Source: a virus
Lineage: Duplodnaviria; Caudoviricetes
Reading direction: 5' to 3' (one strand)
Length of the DNA stretch: 64,000 bases
Virus record (IMG/VR): IMGVR_UViG_3300035182_002389
Location: 64,001-128,000 of that record
Shown here: positions 13,975-63,758 of the stretch, piece after piece
How positions within the stretch are numbered: the stretch's first letter is position 1
How the letters are laid out: the number at the start of each line of letters is the position of its first letter
Translations under genes and position numbers: made by a program
The notes under the pieces: model-generated
What the model saw: only the letters and a program-made list of their open reading frames with translations
The model's database searches: none
What the model was told of the DNA's origin: nothing

Positions 13975-14065
13975 CGCGAGACGGGACGAAAAGGACGGCC
14001 TTCGGCCGAGCACGGGCTTCGCCCGAGGACGCGCCTTCGGCGCGAGAACGGCCTGCGGCCGAGGC
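13975..14065 (+). repeat. dispersed repeat family C, copy 1 (tandem TTCG-loop mini-hairpins)
   Basis: GACGAAAAGGAC-GGCCttcGGCC-GAGCAC-GGGCttcGCCC-GAGGAC-GCGCCttcGGCGC-GAGAAC-GGCCtgcGGCC; recurs at 49568 and 61661. Confidence 0.85.
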
Positions 14066-17158: not shown

Positions 17159-17379
17159 TCCCCGTTCCCGTTCCCGTTCCCGTTCCCGTTCCCAGCGCGC
17201 CAAAGGCGCGCGTTCCCGTTCCCGTTCCCGTTCCCGTTCCCGTTCCCGTTCCCGTTCCCGTTCCCAGCGCACCAAAGGCGCGCGTTCCCGTTCCCGACTC
17301 CCGAGCGAGACGAGATCGGGCAGCGGGAACGCTCGCTTCGCGAGCTGGAACGGGAACGCTCGCTTTGCTCGCTGGAACG
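17159..17379. repeat. dispersed repeat family B, copy 1: (GTTCCC)n arms plus GAGATCGGG...GGGAAC hairpin core
   Basis: about 5, 9 and 2 GTTCCC units separated by GCGCGCC-AAA-GGCGCGC hairpins, then GAGACGAGATCGGG...GGGAACGCTCGCttcGCGAGC. Confidence 0.9.
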
Positions 17380-17386
17380 AGGACGA

Positions 17387-17953: not shown

Positions 17954-18008
17954 GAGAAATCGGGAACGGGGACGGGAACGCTCGCTGCGCGAGCTGGAAA
18001 AGGGGACG
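17954..18008 (+). repeat. dispersed repeat family B, copy 2
   Basis: GAGAAATCGGGAACGGGGACGGGAACGCTCGCtgcGCGAGCTGGAA. Confidence 0.8.
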
Positions 18009-18010
18009 GA

Positions 18011-18961
18011 TTACGCCGACGCGGCGGCGTAGAGCTTGTCGAACTCGTCTTGGTTCCAGCCGACCAGAAGGTCGCCGTTCATGTCGATCACGGGGATGGC
18101 GGTCGTTGCGCCGTTGGTCGCGGTGCCGAGCTTCGTCCACATCGTGAGGTTGTTCTGCGAGCAGGTCGCGTCGCCGCACGCCACGTCCGCGAACGTGTAG
18201 GGGATGCCGGCCGCGTCCGCGTAGGCTCTGGCGGCCTTCGTATGCCCACACCACGTCGCGCCGTAGATGGTGATGGCCGGTTCGACCTTCGTCGCCGGCG
18301 CAGGTGGCGTCGAGCTTGCGGGAGGCGTGTCCGATCCGGTGGGAAAGAGCGGAGGCGGCGCATTGTCTGCGGGCGGGGCGTTGTCCGTCGGCCTCGGCGC
18401 GAAGAGTTCGAGGCCGGCTCGAAAGCGCGACGAGAAGGCGGGCTGCAACGCCTTCAGCGCGGCCGGGCGAAACGCGATGAGGGCAGCCGCAGACTTGAGC
18501 ACGGTCGGTTGCAACTGTGCCTGCATCGTGCGCATCGCGCTGAAGCCGACCGGGGCTTGCCACGGCGTGAACCCGGTCGCGGCGTTCTGAAGCGCGTCGA
18601 TGACCACGCGGTTCTGGAGCAGCGGGGCCGATCGGAAGCTCTGCGAAGACGCGGGGCGCACGAGCTGCATCGTGCTCATCTGGACTTGGTCGGGGGCCTG
18701 GGCAGGCACGGGCGGAGGCTGCGCAGGAGGAGACGGCGACGGCGACGGCGCCGGCAGCGTGGCGATGGTCGGGCCCACCCACGCGCATTTTCCGCTTGGG
18801 TCGCACGCGTACTGCTGCGAGACCCCGTCCGGGAGCGTTCGTACGTCGCCGTCCTTCGCCGTGGTCGCAGGCGCCGAGGGCGTCTTCGTCTTCTTGTAGA
18901 GGACGTACGCGACGCCAACACCGGCGGCGCCGAGGAGCAGATGGAGAGGCTTGATCGACAT
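18011..18961 (-). CDS. membrane-anchored protein with C-terminal glutaredoxin-like domain
   Basis: LLLGAAGVGVAYVLYKK; C-term ITIYGATWCGHTKAARAY...IPVIDMNG...VGW. Confidence 0.75.
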   Translation of the reverse strand: MSIKPLHLLLGAAGVGVAYVLYKKTKTPSAPATTAKDGDVRTLPDGVSQQYACDPSGKCAWVGPTIATLPAPSPSPSPPAQPPPVPAQAPDQVQMSTMQLVRPASSQSFRSAPLLQNRVVIDALQNAATGFTPWQAPVGFSAMRTMQAQLQPTVLKSAAALIAFRPAALKALQPAFSSRFRAGLELFAPRPTDNAPPADNAPPPLFPTGSDTPPASSTPPAPATKVEPAITIYGATWCGHTKAARAYADAAGIPYTFADVACGDATCSQNNLTMWTKLGTATNGATTAIPVIDMNGDLLVGWNQDEFDKLYAAASA

Positions 18962-49005: not shown

Positions 49006-49158
49006 CTTCCCGTTCCCGTTCCCGTTCCCAGCGTGCCGAAGGCGCGCGTTCCCCCTTCCCGAATCCCGCGCCGAAGGCGCGTCTCGGTCCTGCGAGCCCC
49101 CACAAGACGAGATCGGGAACGCTCGCTGCGCGAGCTGGCAACGGGAACGGGGACGGAA
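49006..49158. repeat. dispersed repeat family B, copy 3
   Basis: (GTTCCC)n arm with GCC-GAA-GGC hairpins, then AGACGAGATCGGGAACGCTCGCtgcGCGAGC..GGGAACGGGGAC. Confidence 0.88.
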
Positions 49159-49160
49159 GC

Positions 49161-49511
49161 ATGAGAAAGCTCACCTTCTCGCACGACGACCCGTGGCCGG
49201 ACGGGCTCGTCGTGAAGTTCTACCTCGTGCCCTTTCCTTACCGCCGCAAGCCCGTCATCACCGTGCGCGAGGAGGCGGCAAGGCCGCAGCGCATCGCAGA
49301 CGTCCCCATGACTCTGCTCAACGCGTCACAGCGCGGCGTGACGGACACGGGGCTCGCCAAAGCCCACAAGGTGACCGCCCTTCCTCGCGCGTACGAGGAA
49401 GAGGACGGCCGCTACACCATTGCCGACGGCCACCACCGCGTCGTTGCCGCGTGGCTGCGCGGCGAAGATCAGGTCCGCATTCGCATCATCGGACTGCCTC
49501 GCAAGAAGTGA
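49161..49511 (+). CDS. ParB/Srx-like small protein
   Basis: GRYTIADGHHRVVAAWLRG. Confidence 0.7.
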   Translation: MRKLTFSHDDPWPDGLVVKFYLVPFPYRRKPVITVREEAARPQRIADVPMTLLNASQRGVTDTGLAKAHKVTALPRAYEEEDGRYTIADGHHRVVAAWLRGEDQVRIRIIGLPRKK

Positions 49512-49567
49512 GACGAGATCGGGAACAGGAACGCGCCTTCGGCGCTGGGAACGGGAACGGGAACGGG
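49511..49567 (+). repeat. dispersed repeat family B, copy 4
   Basis: GAGACGAGATCGGGAAC..GCGCCttcGGCGC-TGGGAACGGGAACGGGAACGGG. Confidence 0.88.
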
Positions 49568-49656
49568 CGAGACAAGACGAAAAGGACGGCCTGCGGCCGA
49601 GCACGGGCTTCGCCCGAGGACGCGCCTTCAGCGCGAGGACGGGCTTCGCCCGAGGG
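49568..49656 (+). repeat. dispersed repeat family C, copy 2 (fused to B copy 4)
   Basis: GACGAAAAGGAC-GGCCtgcGGCC-GAGCAC-GGGCttcGCCC-GAGGAC-GCGCCttcAGCGC-GAGGAC-GGGCttcGCCC. Confidence 0.88.
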
Positions 49657-53906: not shown

Positions 53907-54268
53907 CGCCTCGGCCGCTTGAGATCGACGATTTCGAGCACCTTGATGCGATTCGGATCGAACATGATCCAGTTGTCGTCGAGGTGCACGCTGTCGTAGC
54001 CGAGCTGCGTGAGCTGATCGAGCAGGTATCGATCGTACTCTTTCCAGCCCGCGGTCTTCTGCGCCCGGAGCACGACCTTCATCAGATAGTTGAGACTGCC
54101 TGCGCCGCTCTCGCCGCGCAGGATCACGTCCTTGTCCTCGCTGAACCAGAAGATCCCGCCCATCGCGGAGAAGCTCCGCTGAAAGCGTCGAATGGGGTGC
54201 GAGCCGCCATGATAGGCGATAACCGTTCGCTCGGGCGCGAGGCTCGTTCCGAGGGAGGCCTTGCTCAT
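53903..54268 (-). CDS. ART-fold-like small protein
   Basis: VIAYHGG...GGIFWFSED...GYDSV. Confidence 0.55.
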   Translation of the reverse strand: MSKASLGTSLAPERTVIAYHGGSHPIRRFQRSFSAMGGIFWFSEDKDVILRGESGAGSLNYLMKVVLRAQKTAGWKEYDRYLLDQLTQLGYDSVHLDDNWIMFDPNRIKVLEIVDLKRPRR

Positions 54269-55350
54269 CGACCGGACCCCGGCAGAGGACGGCGCTTCCA
54301 ACCCTTCACGCGGGCGGCGTCTTCGGCGATCTCCTTCTGGATCGTCTCGATGCTGCGGTCGATCTTGCGCATCCGAGAGCCCCACTCGCCGTCGTAGCGC
54401 CGGTCCGAAGGTGTGATGACCTCCTTCTGGCCGCGGTAGTTCTCGATGGTCAGAGAGGGCTTCAGGCGCAGCTCGGCGCGGTTCTCTTGCATCCGCGCCT
54501 CGGTCGGCCGAAGGACCTTCGCGATGTACTCGATCGTGCCTTGCGGGCTCAGCTCAAAAGGCGGGCAGTGAAAACCGAAGCAGGGGCCCGTGTGCCACGA
54601 CATTCCCTGCGCGCCCTTGTAGCGCGTGCCGCTCACGCTCCACCCGTGGCGCATCATCATGCGCTCGTGGAGCTTCACGTTGCTGAAGCACGCGGGGCAA
54701 GTGCCGGTGTCTTCGAGCGAGCGCGCGCTCACGGGACGAAGGGCCGCAGCGACCGACTCTGCCCCAAGCTTCGTGATGGCTTCCGCAGCCTTTGCCTTCA
54801 ACCCGCTCTTGTACGCGAAGGTCCAGAACCTATCGGAGCCCGTTTCGGTGAGCGGCTCGACGCGGCCCGTGTAACTCAGCTTCGGCGTGAAGACGACGTC
54901 TCCCGATTCGGTGCGCACTCGATACCCGGGCATCCCGCGCCACACCTCGCGCAGCTCGACGCCGTGCCTGCCGCCCACGTACGGCCCGATACCTCGCGTC
55001 GCCATCTGCCCCGCGCCGAGCGCGATGGGAGGGCCCTTGCTGCTCCACGAGAGGAGGGTCTGCCGAAGGATCGTGACGAGGGTCGCGGCCTGCTCGCGCG
55101 TGCCGACCAGCGCGATGATCGGGTCCTTGCCGCCGAGGCCGACGAAATCCGCGGCAATGCCCGCGTGCGCGGCGACGGGTTTGAGGAACGCGCCCGCCTT
55201 CTCCCCGTCGAGCGACGCGGGCACGACCTCTTGCCCGATCGCCCAGCCGAGCAAGGGAAGCGCCTCGGCCAAGGCGGCGGGATCGAACCCGCCCTTGATC
55301 CCTTTGGCCGCTTTCGTGAGAAAAGCGAGCGCGTTCTTCGAGAGCGTCAT
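54265..55350 (-). CDS. hypothetical protein with Zn-binding module
   Basis: GTCPAC...RHGW...HTGPCFG. Confidence 0.65.
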   Translation of the reverse strand: MTLSKNALAFLTKAAKGIKGGFDPAALAEALPLLGWAIGQEVVPASLDGEKAGAFLKPVAAHAGIAADFVGLGGKDPIIALVGTREQAATLVTILRQTLLSWSSKGPPIALGAGQMATRGIGPYVGGRHGVELREVWRGMPGYRVRTESGDVVFTPKLSYTGRVEPLTETGSDRFWTFAYKSGLKAKAAEAITKLGAESVAAALRPVSARSLEDTGTCPACFSNVKLHERMMMRHGWSVSGTRYKGAQGMSWHTGPCFGFHCPPFELSPQGTIEYIAKVLRPTEARMQENRAELRLKPSLTIENYRGQKEVITPSDRRYDGEWGSRMRKIDRSIETIQKEIAEDAARVKGWKRRPLPGSGR

Positions 55351-59636: not shown

Positions 59637-60104
59637 ATGGCTTCGCGCATGTCTGACGCCGACGCGGCTCGCGTCGTCGACGCCATCCGACGAGCCCCCT
59701 ACCGGGCCCGCATGGGAGGGTACTGCTACCCGTGGGCGATCGCGATTCGACGTGCTCTATTGCCCCAGGGCCGTCTTTGCATCGCCGTCAACGACCCCAT
59801 CTTCGTCGCGAGCCGAAACAAACGCCTCGTCGGACATGCCGCGGTTCGATTCAAAGACCGATGGTTCGACGGTGAAGGGGAGACGTCCCTCGGCGCTCTG
59901 AAGGATTGGGCCATGCTCGACGAGCATGACCCGGCCTACGCTCTCGCCGCGGGCGTCGACCTCACACGGTGGGCCTTGCTCGCGGACAAGGTCGGCGTCT
60001 ACGAGGTCACGGAGAAGGAGCTGATCGCGCTCGTTCCCAGCGCCCGAATCGACGCTGCTGACATCGAGAAGGCGATCAAGCGCGTCCGCCCTGAGATGCG
60101 CTGA
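59637..60104 (+). CDS. papain/transglutaminase-fold-like small protein
   Basis: MGGYCYPWAIAI...GHAAVRFKDRWFDGEG. Confidence 0.55.
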   Translation: MASRMSDADAARVVDAIRRAPYRARMGGYCYPWAIAIRRALLPQGRLCIAVNDPIFVASRNKRLVGHAAVRFKDRWFDGEGETSLGALKDWAMLDEHDPAYALAAGVDLTRWALLADKVGVYEVTEKELIALVPSARIDAADIEKAIKRVRPEMR

Positions 60105-60155
60105 AGAACGAGCGAAGATGATGTAGAGTCCCACCTCGGGGAAGGCTCGGGAGAC

Positions 60156-61124
60156 ATGGCCGAACATCTCATTTTCGACGGGCACAACCTTGCCGTGCGG
60201 TGCGCGCACGCCATCGAGGCGGCAGGGCTCACGAACGCGGACGGCGTGCCGACCGGCGAAGCGTTCGCCTTCCTCAAGGCCCTCGGCGGCTTCAAGACGC
60301 GCTTCCCACTCGCGAAGGTCACCGTCGTGTGGGACGGGTCGAGCCACAAGCGCAAGGCCGTCTTCGACGGGTACAAGGCCAGCCGCGGGATGCTCCGCAA
60401 GACCTTCCCCGTCGAGTACCTGAAGGGTCTTCTGCCCTTCCTTTCCGTTCGTCAGGCCATGAGCCCGACCGACGAGGCGGACGACGTCATCGGCGTCCTC
60501 GTGCGCGTTCGCTCCAGCGCAGAGCGAGATCGGGAACGCTCGCCTTCGGCGAGCTGGGAACGGGAACGGGAACGGGAAGAAGACCGCTTCACCATCGTCA
60601 CGACCGACTGCGATCTCCTTCAAACCGTCACGCCGAAGGTCCGCGTCCTCATGCCGCCAGCGGGCGCTGCAAAAGATCGCCGCGAGACCTTGTACGGCGA
60701 GATCGAGGTGCTTGCCGAGTACGGCGTGCCTGTCGGCCAGCTCCTCGACCTTCGCGCGCTCGCGGGAGACGTCTCCGACGAGATCCCCGGCGTGCCCGAG
60801 CTGGGGCCCAAGCGCGCCGCAAAACTCCTCACCTTCCACGGATCACTCGACGCCGTCTTCGAGGAGGCGCTGCGTGACAAGGCTCGCAAGCGCAAAGGCA
60901 TCCTCGCCTCGCCGATGACGGACCTTCAGCGCAAGAACCTGCGCGAGCACGAAGGAATCGTTCGACGCAATCTTGCGATCATGCGCCTCTCGGACGTCGA
61001 CGAGATCACGTACACCGAAGGCGCTTTCAAGGCTCTTCAAGCGGCCGTGCTTCTCCAGAAGCTCGACATCAAGGTCGACCCCATCCTCGACTTGTTCTTC
61101 CCGAAGCAGACCGCGTTCGCGTAG
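60156..61124 (+). CDS. stand-alone 5'-3' exonuclease/flap endonuclease (Pol I N-terminal type)
   Basis: IFDGHNL, VVWD, YKASR, EADDVIG, TTDCDLLQ, GDVSDEIPGVPELGPKRA (H3TH). Confidence 0.92.
   Translation: MAEHLIFDGHNLAVRCAHAIEAAGLTNADGVPTGEAFAFLKALGGFKTRFPLAKVTVVWDGSSHKRKAVFDGYKASRGMLRKTFPVEYLKGLLPFLSVRQAMSPTDEADDVIGVLVRVRSSAERDRERSPSASWEREREREEDRFTIVTTDCDLLQTVTPKVRVLMPPAGAAKDRRETLYGEIEVLAEYGVPVGQLLDLRALAGDVSDEIPGVPELGPKRAAKLLTFHGSLDAVFEEALRDKARKRKGILASPMTDLQRKNLREHEGIVRRNLAIMRLSDVDEITYTEGAFKALQAAVLLQKLDIKVDPILDLFFPKQTAFA
60522..60581 (+). repeat. dispersed repeat family B, copy 5, in-frame inside the exonuclease
   Basis: GAGCGAGATCGGGAACGCTCGCCttcGGCGAGCTGGGAACGGGAACGGGAACGGGAA = ERDRERSPSASWEREREREE. 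Confidence 0.88.
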
Positions 61125-61161
61125 CGGTGCTTCAGGGCGTACGCTTCCTTTCGAGGTAAGC

Positions 61162-61350
61162 ATGCCCAACAGTCGAACGCGCATTTGCTCACTCACGTGT
61201 CCCGAGCGCGTCGATTGCGAGGTGTGCGGCAAAAAGCTCTGCCACGCGCACGAGCCTCACCACGCAGATGGCTCCGTCGCAAGTTTTTCCGACGGCCACT
61301 ACCTTACGCCGACAGGCGTCGTCTGCGTCGCGCGTCACGCGCGAGGATGA
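61162..61350 (+). CDS. small Cys/His-rich protein
   Basis: CEVCGKKLCHAH; SD GAGGT. Confidence 0.45.
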   Translation: MPNSRTRICSLTCPERVDCEVCGKKLCHAHEPHHADGSVASFSDGHYLTPTGVVCVARHARG

Positions 61351-61351
61351 G

Positions 61352-61633
61352 TCAGTCGTCTTCATCGACGGAAATCCACCATCCCTCGGCGTGCTTGAAG
61401 CCCGCAGGGACGTGCCAGACGTAGAGCGGGTCGCCTTTGCGCGATCGCCCCGTCGTCAAAGAGGGGCGAACCGAGACGACGTAGTACGTGCGCGTCGGAT
61501 CTTTGCCGGCGACGCTCTTCGCGAGCGCTGCGAGCAGGCGCTCTTCGTTGCCTGCGCCAACCTCATGCGGACCGTCCACGATGGTCGAGTTCTTTACGCC
61601 GTGGACGACGACCGCGAGGGCTCTTTTCGACAT
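61352..61633 (-). CDS. hypothetical protein
   Basis: TAAAAT 6 nt before the ATG. Confidence 0.6.
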   Translation of the reverse strand: MSKRALAVVVHGVKNSTIVDGPHEVGAGNEERLLAALAKSVAGKDPTRTYYVVSVRPSLTTGRSRKGDPLYVWHVPAGFKHAEGWWISVDEDD

Positions 61634-61650
61634 GGGCGTATTTTACTTTG

Positions 61651-61756
61651 AGACGAGACAAGAGCGAGACTCAGACGAAAAGAACGACCTTCGGTCGAGC
61701 ACGGGCTTCGCCCGAGGACGCGCCTGCGGCACGAGGACGCGCCTTCGGCGCGAGGA
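61651..61756 (+). repeat. dispersed repeat family C, copy 3
   Basis: GA-rich leader, GACGAAAAGAAC-GACCttcGGTC-GAGCAC-GGGCttcGCCC-GAGGAC-GCGCCtgcGGCAC-GAGGAC-GCGCCttcGGCGC. Confidence 0.88.
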
Positions 61757-62485
61757 TTAGCTTAGCCAGTTCTGCACGGCCTGAAAGAGCCGAGGGGCCT
61801 TCCTCTGCATCGCGGAAGGGTCGAGCGCCCACCACGCGGCGGCATCCATCGCGCCCTCGAAGTTGCCCGCGAGCGCGTGGTAGGCCGTGATGGGCCGGTT
61901 CATCGACCCAAGGACTGCAATGACCTCTCGACCCGCCTCGGGGTTCAACGAGAAGGCGGCGTGGGCAGCTTCGTGCGCTGCGACCTTGCTGCCGCCGTGC
62001 ATCCGCGAGCCTGCGATCTCCGTCATCACGGGCAGGTGCGCGTTGATGACCGTCGCGCGGCCCGCGTGACACTCGCCAGAAGAGGTCGAAGAGCCCTCGA
62101 TGACGAGGAACTTGATGCGGATGCCGCGAAAGACGCGCCGCGCCACGATCATCGCTTCGCGTAGCAGCTCGCCGCCGCCGTCCATCGGGCGCCAGAGCCT
62201 CGCTTTTCCGAGCACTGGAGCCCACTTCTTCCAGCGCTCGACGTCGAGCGTCCACTTCGCGAGCGCGCGCGGCGGTCCGAGCACGGCGCCCACCGACCCG
62301 TTGCGACCTTGGTAGACGAGGTAGCCGTCCTTCAGGTCGTAGCCTGCGATGGCCGGCGCGAACGTGTCTTCGGTGTCGAAGGACTCCGCGTAGACCTTGC
62401 CGACGCCTTCGACGCGCACCCATCCCGCGGAGCCTTCCAGGCTCTTCTTCGCTCGCTTGCGAAGGGTGTCAGGGGTGAGCGGCAT
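61757..62485 (-). CDS. HExxH metallopeptidase-like protein
   Basis: VAAHEAAHAAF. Confidence 0.6.
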   Translation of the reverse strand: MPLTPDTLRKRAKKSLEGSAGWVRVEGVGKVYAESFDTEDTFAPAIAGYDLKDGYLVYQGRNGSVGAVLGPPRALAKWTLDVERWKKWAPVLGKARLWRPMDGGGELLREAMIVARRVFRGIRIKFLVIEGSSTSSGECHAGRATVINAHLPVMTEIAGSRMHGGSKVAAHEAAHAAFSLNPEAGREVIAVLGSMNRPITAYHALAGNFEGAMDAAAWWALDPSAMQRKAPRLFQAVQNWLS

Positions 62486-62524
62486 CTTCTGCTCATTCTG
62501 CGTACGTCAGGGCTCGCTGTCGAT

Positions 62525-62539
62525 GACTTTCAGTAAGCC
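62525..62539. promoter_or_regulatory. dyad motif
   Basis: GACTTTCAGTAAGCC. Confidence 0.7.
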
Positions 62540-62549
62540 AGCCGCCCGA

Positions 62550-62615
62550 AACAAGATCGGGAAACGCTCGCTGCGCTCGCTGGGAACGGGAACGGGAACG
62601 GGAACGGGAGCGGGC
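62550..62615 (+). repeat. dispersed repeat family B, copy 6
   Basis: AACAAGATCGGGAAACGCTCGCTGCGCTCGCTGGGAACGGGAACGGGAACGGGAACGGGAGCGGG. Confidence 0.85.
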
Positions 62616-62657
62616 AAGGCTTTGCCTCGCCCGCGTCGATCGGCGTAGACTCACGCC

Positions 62658-63758
62658 ATGCCGTACATCAAAGGCGCCTCCGAAGAGTCCGTCGCACAAA
62701 ATGTGGATTTTGCCCTTCGCGAAGGAAAAAGCCACGATCAGGCGATGGCCATCGCGCGCTCCTACGCGAACCGCGTGCTCAAGGCACGCCGCCACGTCTG
62801 GACCCAAGAGCGCGAGCGCATCTTCCAGGTCGGCGTTCGGATGGGCGTCGCGAAGTACCACGGCAAACGAGCGCGCCGCGACGCTCCGCCGAAGCATGTC
62901 CGCAAAGCTCGCGTCTTCGTTCGCCTCTCCTACCCCCTCGGCGACGGGACGCAGAAGCAGCAAGAGGCCGTCGCGCGAAAAGCCGACATGCGCATCTACG
63001 AAGCTGCCGGGGGCCGTCTCACGACCAAATCGGGCGGCGCGTATGGCCGCCTCGGGCATCGCTCGCACTCGTTCGAGTACGCGACCCCCGACAGCGCCCA
63101 GCGCGTGCTCCACGCCATCGAGAAGCTCAAGATCAAGGGCCTGAAGATCGGCATCGTCTCGATCGTATGGGACGAATCGGGCCGCGCGCAGTCGACCTCG
63201 CTGACCTCCTTGCCGGCCGCGAAGCCAGCCAAGAAGCCGGCCAAGAAGCCGGCGAAGGCCGCGAAGAAGCCGGCCAAGAAGAAGCCGGCGAAAGCCGCGA
63301 AGAAGAGGCCCGCGAAGGCCGCGAAGAAGCCTGCGAAGGCCGCGAAGAAGAAGCCCGCGAAGGCCGCGAAGAGGCCGGCGAAGGCTGCGAAGAAGCCGGT
63401 CAAGACCTCGACCAAGACCTCGACCAAGAGGACCTCCGCCAAGAAGGTCGTCCCGACCTTCGAGGTGTGGGGCTGGAAGGGCAACAAGGGTCACAAGCTC
63501 TCGACCCACACCCGCGAGACCAACGCCATCGAAGCGGCGAAAAAGATCAAGGGCTACGACAAGGTCCGAGTGCAAGTTCACATGGGGCGCGAAACCAAGA
63601 GCTTCACCGTGCAGGGGCCGCGCGGCGGCGTCGGCCGCGTCGGCGGCACGATGCCGAAGTCGCGCGGACCTGCGAAGAAGACGACCAAGAAGACGGCCAA
63701 GAAAGCGGCAAAGAAGTCTGCCAAGACCACGCGCCGGCAGAGCGTGCCGCCGTTCTGA
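62658..63758 (+). CDS. histone H1/AlgP-like Lys/Ala-rich protein with globular N-terminal domain
   Basis: KSHDQAMAIA N-terminal motif; many (P)AK(K/A)(P/A)AKK repeats; TAGACT 6 nt before the ATG. Confidence 0.8.
   Translation: MPYIKGASEESVAQNVDFALREGKSHDQAMAIARSYANRVLKARRHVWTQERERIFQVGVRMGVAKYHGKRARRDAPPKHVRKARVFVRLSYPLGDGTQKQQEAVARKADMRIYEAAGGRLTTKSGGAYGRLGHRSHSFEYATPDSAQRVLHAIEKLKIKGLKIGIVSIVWDESGRAQSTSLTSLPAAKPAKKPAKKPAKAAKKPAKKKPAKAAKKRPAKAAKKPAKAAKKKPAKAAKRPAKAAKKPVKTSTKTSTKRTSAKKVVPTFEVWGWKGNKGHKLSTHTRETNAIEAAKKIKGYDKVRVQVHMGRETKSFTVQGPRGGVGRVGGTMPKSRGPAKKTTKKTAKKAAKKSAKTTRRQSVPPF

Follow-up and report, generated by a model that had tools for sequence, protein, structure and literature searches.

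The FEN gene and the insert within it

The window analysed here is a 64,000-nt stretch of viral DNA, bases 64001-128000 of a 202,518-bp virus record (65% G+C; 94% complete by the CheckV estimate) that was recovered from sediment and microbial-mat metagenomes. Positions are those of the window unless marked as genome. The locus under study is a gene for a 5'-3' exonuclease/flap endonuclease (FEN), which carries in frame one arm of a repeat, B, present elsewhere in the same virus. The following features were assigned at this locus:

60156..61124, + strand: FEN gene, 322 aa (Pfam, matches to Taq and M. smegmatis, AF2/Foldseek)
60509..60527, + strand: small inverted repeat TCGCTC / GAGCGA astride the left junction of the insert, 60509-60514 with 60522-60527 (read from sequence)
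60522..60578, + strand: inserted repeat B arm, 57 nt or 19 codons, about residues 122-141, AERDRERSPSASWERERERE (repeat matches, profile, gap in the homologue P0002, pLDDT ~50)
60538..60554, + strand: core hairpin of the inserted arm, with a 7-bp GC-rich stem and a 3-nt loop (read from sequence)
60556..60579, + strand: hexamer run (GGGAAC)x3 + GGGAAG, read as Glu-Arg repeats (sequence)

The FEN protein matched the Pfam families 5_3_exonuc_N (PF02739; E 3e-21, 76 bits against a cut-off of 34.3) and 5_3_exonuc (PF01367; E 5e-14, 53 bits against a cut-off of 40), as well as the Taq and M. smegmatis FEN sequences. By sequence and predicted structure, it was assigned to the Pol I-type 5'-3' exonucleases/FENs, with a predicted N-terminal resolvase-like (PIN-like) domain and an H3TH/SAM-fold domain. 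The earlier note on this DNA had described the reading frame and catalytic motifs as intact, which our alignment of 22 FEN sequences bore out: the metal-binding carboxylates E107, D110, D151, D153, D205, and D208 were all present and invariant, and D8 and D60 were nearly invariant. An AF2 model based on 22 sequences had a mean pLDDT of 84.2 and a pTM of 0.84, and Foldseek matched it to M. smegmatis FenA (6c33; TM 0.74) and also to ExoIX and T5 FEN. When the gene was compared with that of an insert-bearing strain (JGI contig L004), dN/dS was 0.077 outside the insert (23 synonymous and 6 non-synonymous changes) and ~0.31 over residues 117-142, the latter from small counts (4 synonymous and 4 non-synonymous). 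Taken together, the intact catalytic residues, low dN/dS, and normal predicted fold suggest that the FEN gene is still functional.

The 322-aa open reading frame reads ...EADDVIGVLVRVRSS-AERDRERSPSASWEREREREE-DRFTIVTTDCDLLQ..., and the peptide between ...EADDVIGVLVR and FTIVTTDCDLLQ is VRSSAERDRERSPSASWEREREREEDR. Repeat B had previously been placed in frame inside this gene at 60522-60581, as 20 codons; we confirmed the in-frame repeat and assigned it to 60522-60578, or 19 codons. This segment was 89% identical to the intergenic copy at 17171-17227 over 57 nt and 94% identical to the copy at 49006-49053 over 48 nt. An nhmmer profile built from 10 intergenic B copies, with the FEN copy left out, recovered the FEN copy at 45.6 bits (E = 8.1e-13), so the claimed match to intergenic B at the DNA level is significant. 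The 23-nt core pattern and the hexamer run each had 0 matches expected in shuffled sequences. Furthermore, an alignment of all arms showed that the match takes in the leader (GAGATCGGGAACG) and hairpin as well as CTGG and the (GGGAAC)n run, and thus extends beyond the microsatellite alone. The core stem was formed in the predicted fold of the minus-strand RNA and was absent from the minimum-energy fold of the plus strand (mRNA sense), and the solo FEN arm as a whole folded no better than shuffled sequence (z ~0).

In the AF2 model, pLDDT dropped to 48-53 only in the blocks covering residues 121-140, where the earlier note had suggested checking for a surface loop, and the rest of the FEN fold was predicted normally. 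These blocks lie between the helix that follows EADD (residues 108-120) and the TxDxD strand (residues 144-148). This position within the secondary structure points to an insert exposed on the protein surface, and the general topology of the fold would put the helix-to-strand connection at the N-terminal edge of the sheet, away from the active site.

Distribution of repeat B and a second coding copy

In each B arm, a conserved leader (about GAGACGAGATCGGGAACG) is followed by a GC hairpin, CTGG, and a (GGGAAC)n run. Paired in inverted order, two such arms form a composite of ~150 nt with the ends (GTTCCC)n ... (GGGAAC)n, and the FEN copy corresponds to a single arm. With nhmmer, 21 significant arms were detected at 13 sites in the 202-kb virus. 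Besides the FEN copy, the following were located in the window:

17164..17385, both orientations: largest B cluster, in which two (-) arms carrying long hexamer runs precede two (+) arms (profile)
17956..18011, + strand: B arm antisense between two minus-strand genes (profile)
49006..49154, both orientations: (-)/(+) composite of two B arms, flanked on both sides by + strand genes (profile)
49510..49564, + strand: B arm at the 3' end of a + strand gene; an 'A'-type hairpin array (49567-49655) comes directly after it (repeat matches, profile)
62551..62611, + strand: B arm in the spacer of a divergent gene pair, 46 nt upstream of the 366-aa gene (profile)

Other repeats were also noted in the window. 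Family A is made up of short GC hairpins with CTTCGG-like loops, 4-5 of them in each tandem array (61665-61753, 49567-49655, and 13976-14064), and a B arm and an A array abut at 49510-49655. A further dispersed repeat of ~110-118 nt (families D2/D3) occurs in 5-6 copies, up to 96% identical, between 33597 and 58624. The largest direct-repeat family (D1) consists of the long Lys/Ala/Pro-rich (KKPAKAAKK) repeats, of histone H1 type, in the proteins encoded at 62658-63758 and 1555-2167.

Pairing of the B stem was conserved across copies. In the alignment, 86.7% of cells were paired, compared with 20-53% when the partner was slid, and pairing was kept through T-A to G-C double changes; the covariation score was reached by 1 of 500 shuffles. 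As the copies are related to one another, this is moderate evidence only, and the stem was broken in several of them. The composite folded as a long palindrome, with z-scores of -4.7 as RNA and -5.9 as DNA.

B arms were located in sense orientation upstream of genes, downstream of genes, and antisense between co-directional genes, with no consistent orientation to their neighbours. The B hairpin is followed by CUGGGAAC, and by GUUCCC repeats on the other strand; the intergenic copies have no U-tract of the kind expected at an intrinsic terminator. A terminator scan of 60000-62800 returned no site at any B copy, a sigma-70 promoter scan was likewise empty at B, and no Rfam family, introns included, matched the insert region or B. 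The earlier note had concluded that B is mobile rather than a terminator. The first half of this statement is supported, in that presence and absence among relatives and the dispersed copies suggest that B is mobile. The second half was too strong: despite the lack of a U-tract and of a steady orientation, intergenic B copies could still serve as RNA hairpins.

We also searched for genes that might be associated with movement of the repeat. No Y1/RAYT (PF01797), DDE_Tnp_1 (PF01609), HNH, GIY-YIG, or PF05635 gene was found in the 202-kb virus record, with a positive control for each. A search for the exact leader-hairpin-hexamer pattern found no match in IMG/VR or among 185,579 species genomes, and so gave no independent sign that B has moved outside this lineage. 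A (GGGAAC)4 run was tried as a marker of the element and rejected. Such runs are frequent across many phyla and viral contigs, much of them coding for Gly-Asn repeats, and therefore do not mark B.

The flanks of each B site were tested for a coding GC3 signature, by which coding sites were called. Only 2 of the 13 sites had this signature in one frame on both flanks: the FEN copy and a copy in a second enzyme gene. The latter is a genome ORF at 54173-55180 (L006:1674-2681; 335 aa), outside the window, which encodes a calcineurin-like metallophosphoesterase (PF00149) and spans a (-)/(+) pair of B arms. Its insert is a 156-nt in-frame B composite encoding 52 aa (PFASAP...GTGTGNG), and all aligned homologues, at 260-291 aa, are without those 52 residues. 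In the AF2 model of this protein, most of the fold had pLDDT above 90, whereas residues 112-152 fell below 50 and had no secondary structure. Low confidence was thus limited to the inserts in both the FEN and the metallophosphoesterase model, and block means of pLDDT in the cores were mostly ~90 or higher. In the predicted models, therefore, the metallophosphoesterase insert, like that in FEN, lies where the fold tolerates extra residues.

In FEN the hexamers encode Glu-Arg, whereas in the metallophosphoesterase they encode Gly-Thr. Because the frames differ between the two genes, it is the DNA and not a peptide that is the repeated unit, and there is no conserved B peptide. Both coding inserts are multiples of three, which has a chance probability of ~1 in 9 (n = 2). 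Only 1 stop codon was present in 78 frame readings of B (13 sites, six frames), and none in the FEN or metallophosphoesterase copies. Given this single stop, any B insertion with a length divisible by three would be read through.

Length alleles and the origin of the insert

The nearest homologue of the FEN protein among 5.8 billion proteins was a 303-aa ENA sequence (P0002), which was identical at 285 of 303 residues in aligned columns (94%). The alignment contained one single gap, of exactly 19 residues, at the insert; the indel of about 20 aa anticipated earlier is thus present, and the closest homologue has no loop of equivalent length. A 324-aa homologue (P0148) and a partial sequence (P0027, from L004) carried the insert plus two residues. 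In the DNA of L004, one extra GGGAAC unit is located 5' of the hairpin (+6 nt, +2 aa), and one substitution breaks one stem pair. Three FEN length alleles were therefore represented in independent assemblies: a 303-aa form without the insert, the 322-aa form, and a 324-aa form with one more hexamer.

The earlier note had judged the loop to be longer than the linker of Pol I-type nucleases. Consistent with this, both Taq Pol I (as 3 + 16 columns) and M. smegmatis Pol I (as a single run) aligned with a 19-residue gap at the loop. A homologue with 41% identity (P0003) was also without the insert loop, as were most of the ~20 more distant FENs shown, and one distant FEN (P0012) had its own unrelated insertion of ~10 residues at this position. 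As P0003, most distant FENs, and the Taq and M. smegmatis Pol I enzymes do not have the loop, insertion in this lineage is the parsimonious polarity.

No target-site duplication was obvious by eye around either coding copy. Of the 18 substitutions relative to the 303-aa homologue, 6 fall within 5 residues of the gap. The inverted repeat astride the left junction in the window is replaced in L004 by a different inverted repeat at the same place; the window repeat could be left over from the palindrome at the centre of the composite element. From the clustered substitutions and these inverted repeats, the element may begin near 60509. If so, 57 nt may represent the net length difference rather than the exact borders.

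The 303-aa homologue is encoded on a 4,686-nt contig (ENA assembly ERZ1426824), whose gene order was the same as in the window. Judged by gene coordinates only, the spacers of this contig corresponding to the A array (61633-61757) and to the B arm (62485-62658) were ~115 and ~67 nt shorter, which suggests that repeats A and B come and go between relatives that are ~90% identical. The A site at 61665-61753 was apparently missing there (spacer of 8 nt vs 123 nt). Another difference between these close relatives is a small-gene indel at 61125-61351. This 227-nt stretch, from the FEN stop to a 93-aa gene, was missing from the contig of the 303-aa homologue, where the gap was 13 nt. It contains a Cys/His-rich 62-aa ORF (61163-61351, + strand; GC3 ~0.7 by hand count), and in the contig with the 324-aa allele one gene caller placed a 58-aa minus-strand ORF in this region.

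Further relatives of the locus were sought in several data sets. A metagenome scan for the FEN locus returned nothing beyond L004, the insert-bearing strain, and one distant FEN. No relative was found in a related-locus search of viral contigs, shorter FEN fragments were sought without success, and no hexamer pair was present in the 10-kb locus of the 41%-identical relative. Among contigs of four runs aligned to the FEN locus, with partial coverage in X4-X6, no reported joint skipped the insert. A contig of 271 nt from run X5 covers 60394-60658, its alignment containing 6 gap letters; it may represent the L004-type allele and is left out of the evidence here.

On the basis of these results, we consider that the FEN insert is one arm of a selfish, non-autonomous palindromic repeat that was copied into a tolerant surface loop of the enzyme and is carried as a translated, disordered passenger (probability of roughly 0.75). 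B would be a gene-less, non-autonomous palindromic repeat of the virus, one arm of which was copied into the FEN loop between the helix after EADD and the TxDxD strand. Because B is nearly free of stops and 57 nt is a multiple of three, reading would continue through the copy and add 19 residues that are charged and probably disordered. FEN would tolerate these, and slippage of the hexamers could change their number without breaking the frame. Copying may have occurred by an enzyme acting in trans, unrecognised in the virus or encoded by the host, or by hairpin-mediated recombination or repair. A stronger version, in which B is an active mobile element that is copied by a viral or host enzyme not recognised as a transposase and repeatedly makes disordered loops in viral enzymes, is a tentative proposal to which we give rather less than even odds.

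The outgroups also bear on the direction of the event between the two closest alleles, and point to insertion rather than loss in the relative. In the alternative scenario, the B-derived loop predates the divergence of the three alleles and was removed from the 303-aa relative by a precise excision or deletion of 57 nt, so that the polymorphism would not reflect a recent insertion. Hexamer runs and hairpins are prone to deletion, the shorter spacers in the contig of that relative differ by about the length of an element and may reflect general element loss there, and substitutions cluster at the junction. However, a deletion would have had to be precise, removing exactly 19 codons and restoring the normal loop length, and an insertion is needed in any case given the absence of the loop from P0003, the two Pol I enzymes, and most aligned FENs. 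We therefore regard loss as unlikely.

Slightly less likely again is that the insert has been kept for a function, either as an mRNA hairpin (a processing site, a ribosome pause, or an internal regulatory site) or as a charged binding loop. The insert has been retained in at least two diverged strains in a gene that is otherwise constrained, its hairpin stem is perfect in the window, and the hairpins covary across copies. Nevertheless, L004 has a broken stem pair, the 94%-identical relative manages without the insert, and no promoter- or terminator-like site was predicted at it. A role for the peptide is likewise at odds with the different frames of the two coding copies, the pLDDT of ~50 over the insert, and a dN/dS of ~0.3 in the insert region compared with 0.08 outside it, although the counts in the former are small.

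That the insert is not translated at all, through ribosome skipping or removal from the RNA, is improbable. Both coding inserts are stop-free multiples of three, and the strain variant differs by exactly one hexamer, which is required by read-through and would not be by bypass or splicing; in addition, no Rfam family, including those of introns, was found in the region. Finally, while metagenome assemblers can mis-join at short repeats and many genomes commonly carry (GGGAAC)n runs by themselves, an assembly artefact or a chance likeness of a Glu-Arg-rich loop to B is hardly credible, as the same insert recurred in contigs of several runs and studies, one of which showed no difference over 1.5 kb, and in both a JGI contig and an ENA assembly with strain-specific substitutions, the match takes in the non-repetitive leader and hairpin besides the hexamers, and the frame is preserved.

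Comparison with known repeat systems

Several bacterial repeat systems share features with B. Bacterial MITEs and intragenic ERIC / RU elements (PMC10969869; Delihas 2007, PMC2759123) resemble it in their small size and in the inverted arms of the composite. Unlike MITEs, B has no parent IS or transposase in the virus, and it often occurs as a single arm, or half element, as in the FEN copy. REP / BIME elements mobilised by RAYT (Y1) (PMC3733652) are similar to B in having GC-rich hairpins of 15-20 nt with conserved flanks, often as inverted intergenic pairs, whereas the virus has no Y1/RAYT gene and B also lies inside genes. No GTAG or CGTC tag was seen at the foot of the B hairpin on reading the copies.

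A candidate link to cassettes with PF05635, a four-helix-bundle 23S rRNA intervening-sequence protein, was also considered. In a metagenome-assembled genome of an uncultured deltaproteobacterium (L027:790-2110), inverted (GTTCCC)5 and (GGGAAC)5 runs delimit a cassette of ~1.3 kb, which contains a PF05635 ORF (E 2e-22) 29 nt from one run and an apparent transposase fragment. The polarity of its arms is the same as in the viral composite. A similar gene lies 13 nt from a hexamer run in L083, and these two were the only loci with a PF05635 ORF nearby among 202 (GGGAAC)4 loci. By contrast, the virus has no PF05635 gene, and no profile match to the B leader and hairpin at the (GGGAAC)4 loci was better than E 0.015. 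The link is weak, resting on a common microsatellite, and we did not count it as support.

The closest parallel in behaviour is with the Rickettsia palindromic elements (RPEs; Ogata et al. 2000 Science 290:347; 2002 Genome Res 12:808), as they are summarised in PMC10969869; no sequence relationship is claimed. Like B, RPEs are short, gene-less palindromic repeats dispersed in one genome, a fraction of which lie in frame inside unrelated enzyme genes, at fold-compatible places that leave the host genes intact, with no cognate transposase known. B likewise is a dispersed, multi-copy, gene-less palindrome that was found in frame in intact genes and was absent from their orthologues. This parallel had been drawn in the earlier note, and it is strengthened by the metallophosphoesterase insertion, the three FEN alleles, and the failure to find a cognate transposase. 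There are also differences. RPEs reside in a bacterial host and B in a virus of bacteria, and coding sites make up 2 of 13 for B compared with nearly half in 3 of 10 RPE families. According to the same summary, each RPE encodes a conserved peptide (PMC10969869), whereas the coding copies of B are read in different frames and share no element-encoded peptide. In addition, unlike RPEs, B arms end in a hexamer microsatellite of variable number.

There is no settled account of how small palindromic repeats such as RPEs come to lie in coding sequence or how proteins accommodate them, and RPE-type behaviour is seen here in a compact viral genome. Filled, empty, and length-variant FEN alleles coexist in nature, and a second enzyme carries a full palindrome. 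Because these alleles coexist, the tolerance of the fold is directly testable in a flap assay with and without the 19 residues. The results also carry a warning for annotation, as the hairpin repeats of this virus also occur outside spacers, and loop insertions in its proteins may be repeat-derived rather than functional domains.

A non-exhaustive full-text literature search returned no paper on in-frame palindromic-repeat insertions in phage. In-frame palindromic insertion as such is known from Rickettsia; what differs here is the viral host, the lack of a conserved peptide or frame, and the microsatellite-ended arms. The description that fits the FEN insert best is a coding insertion of RPE/MITE-like type, carried by a virus.
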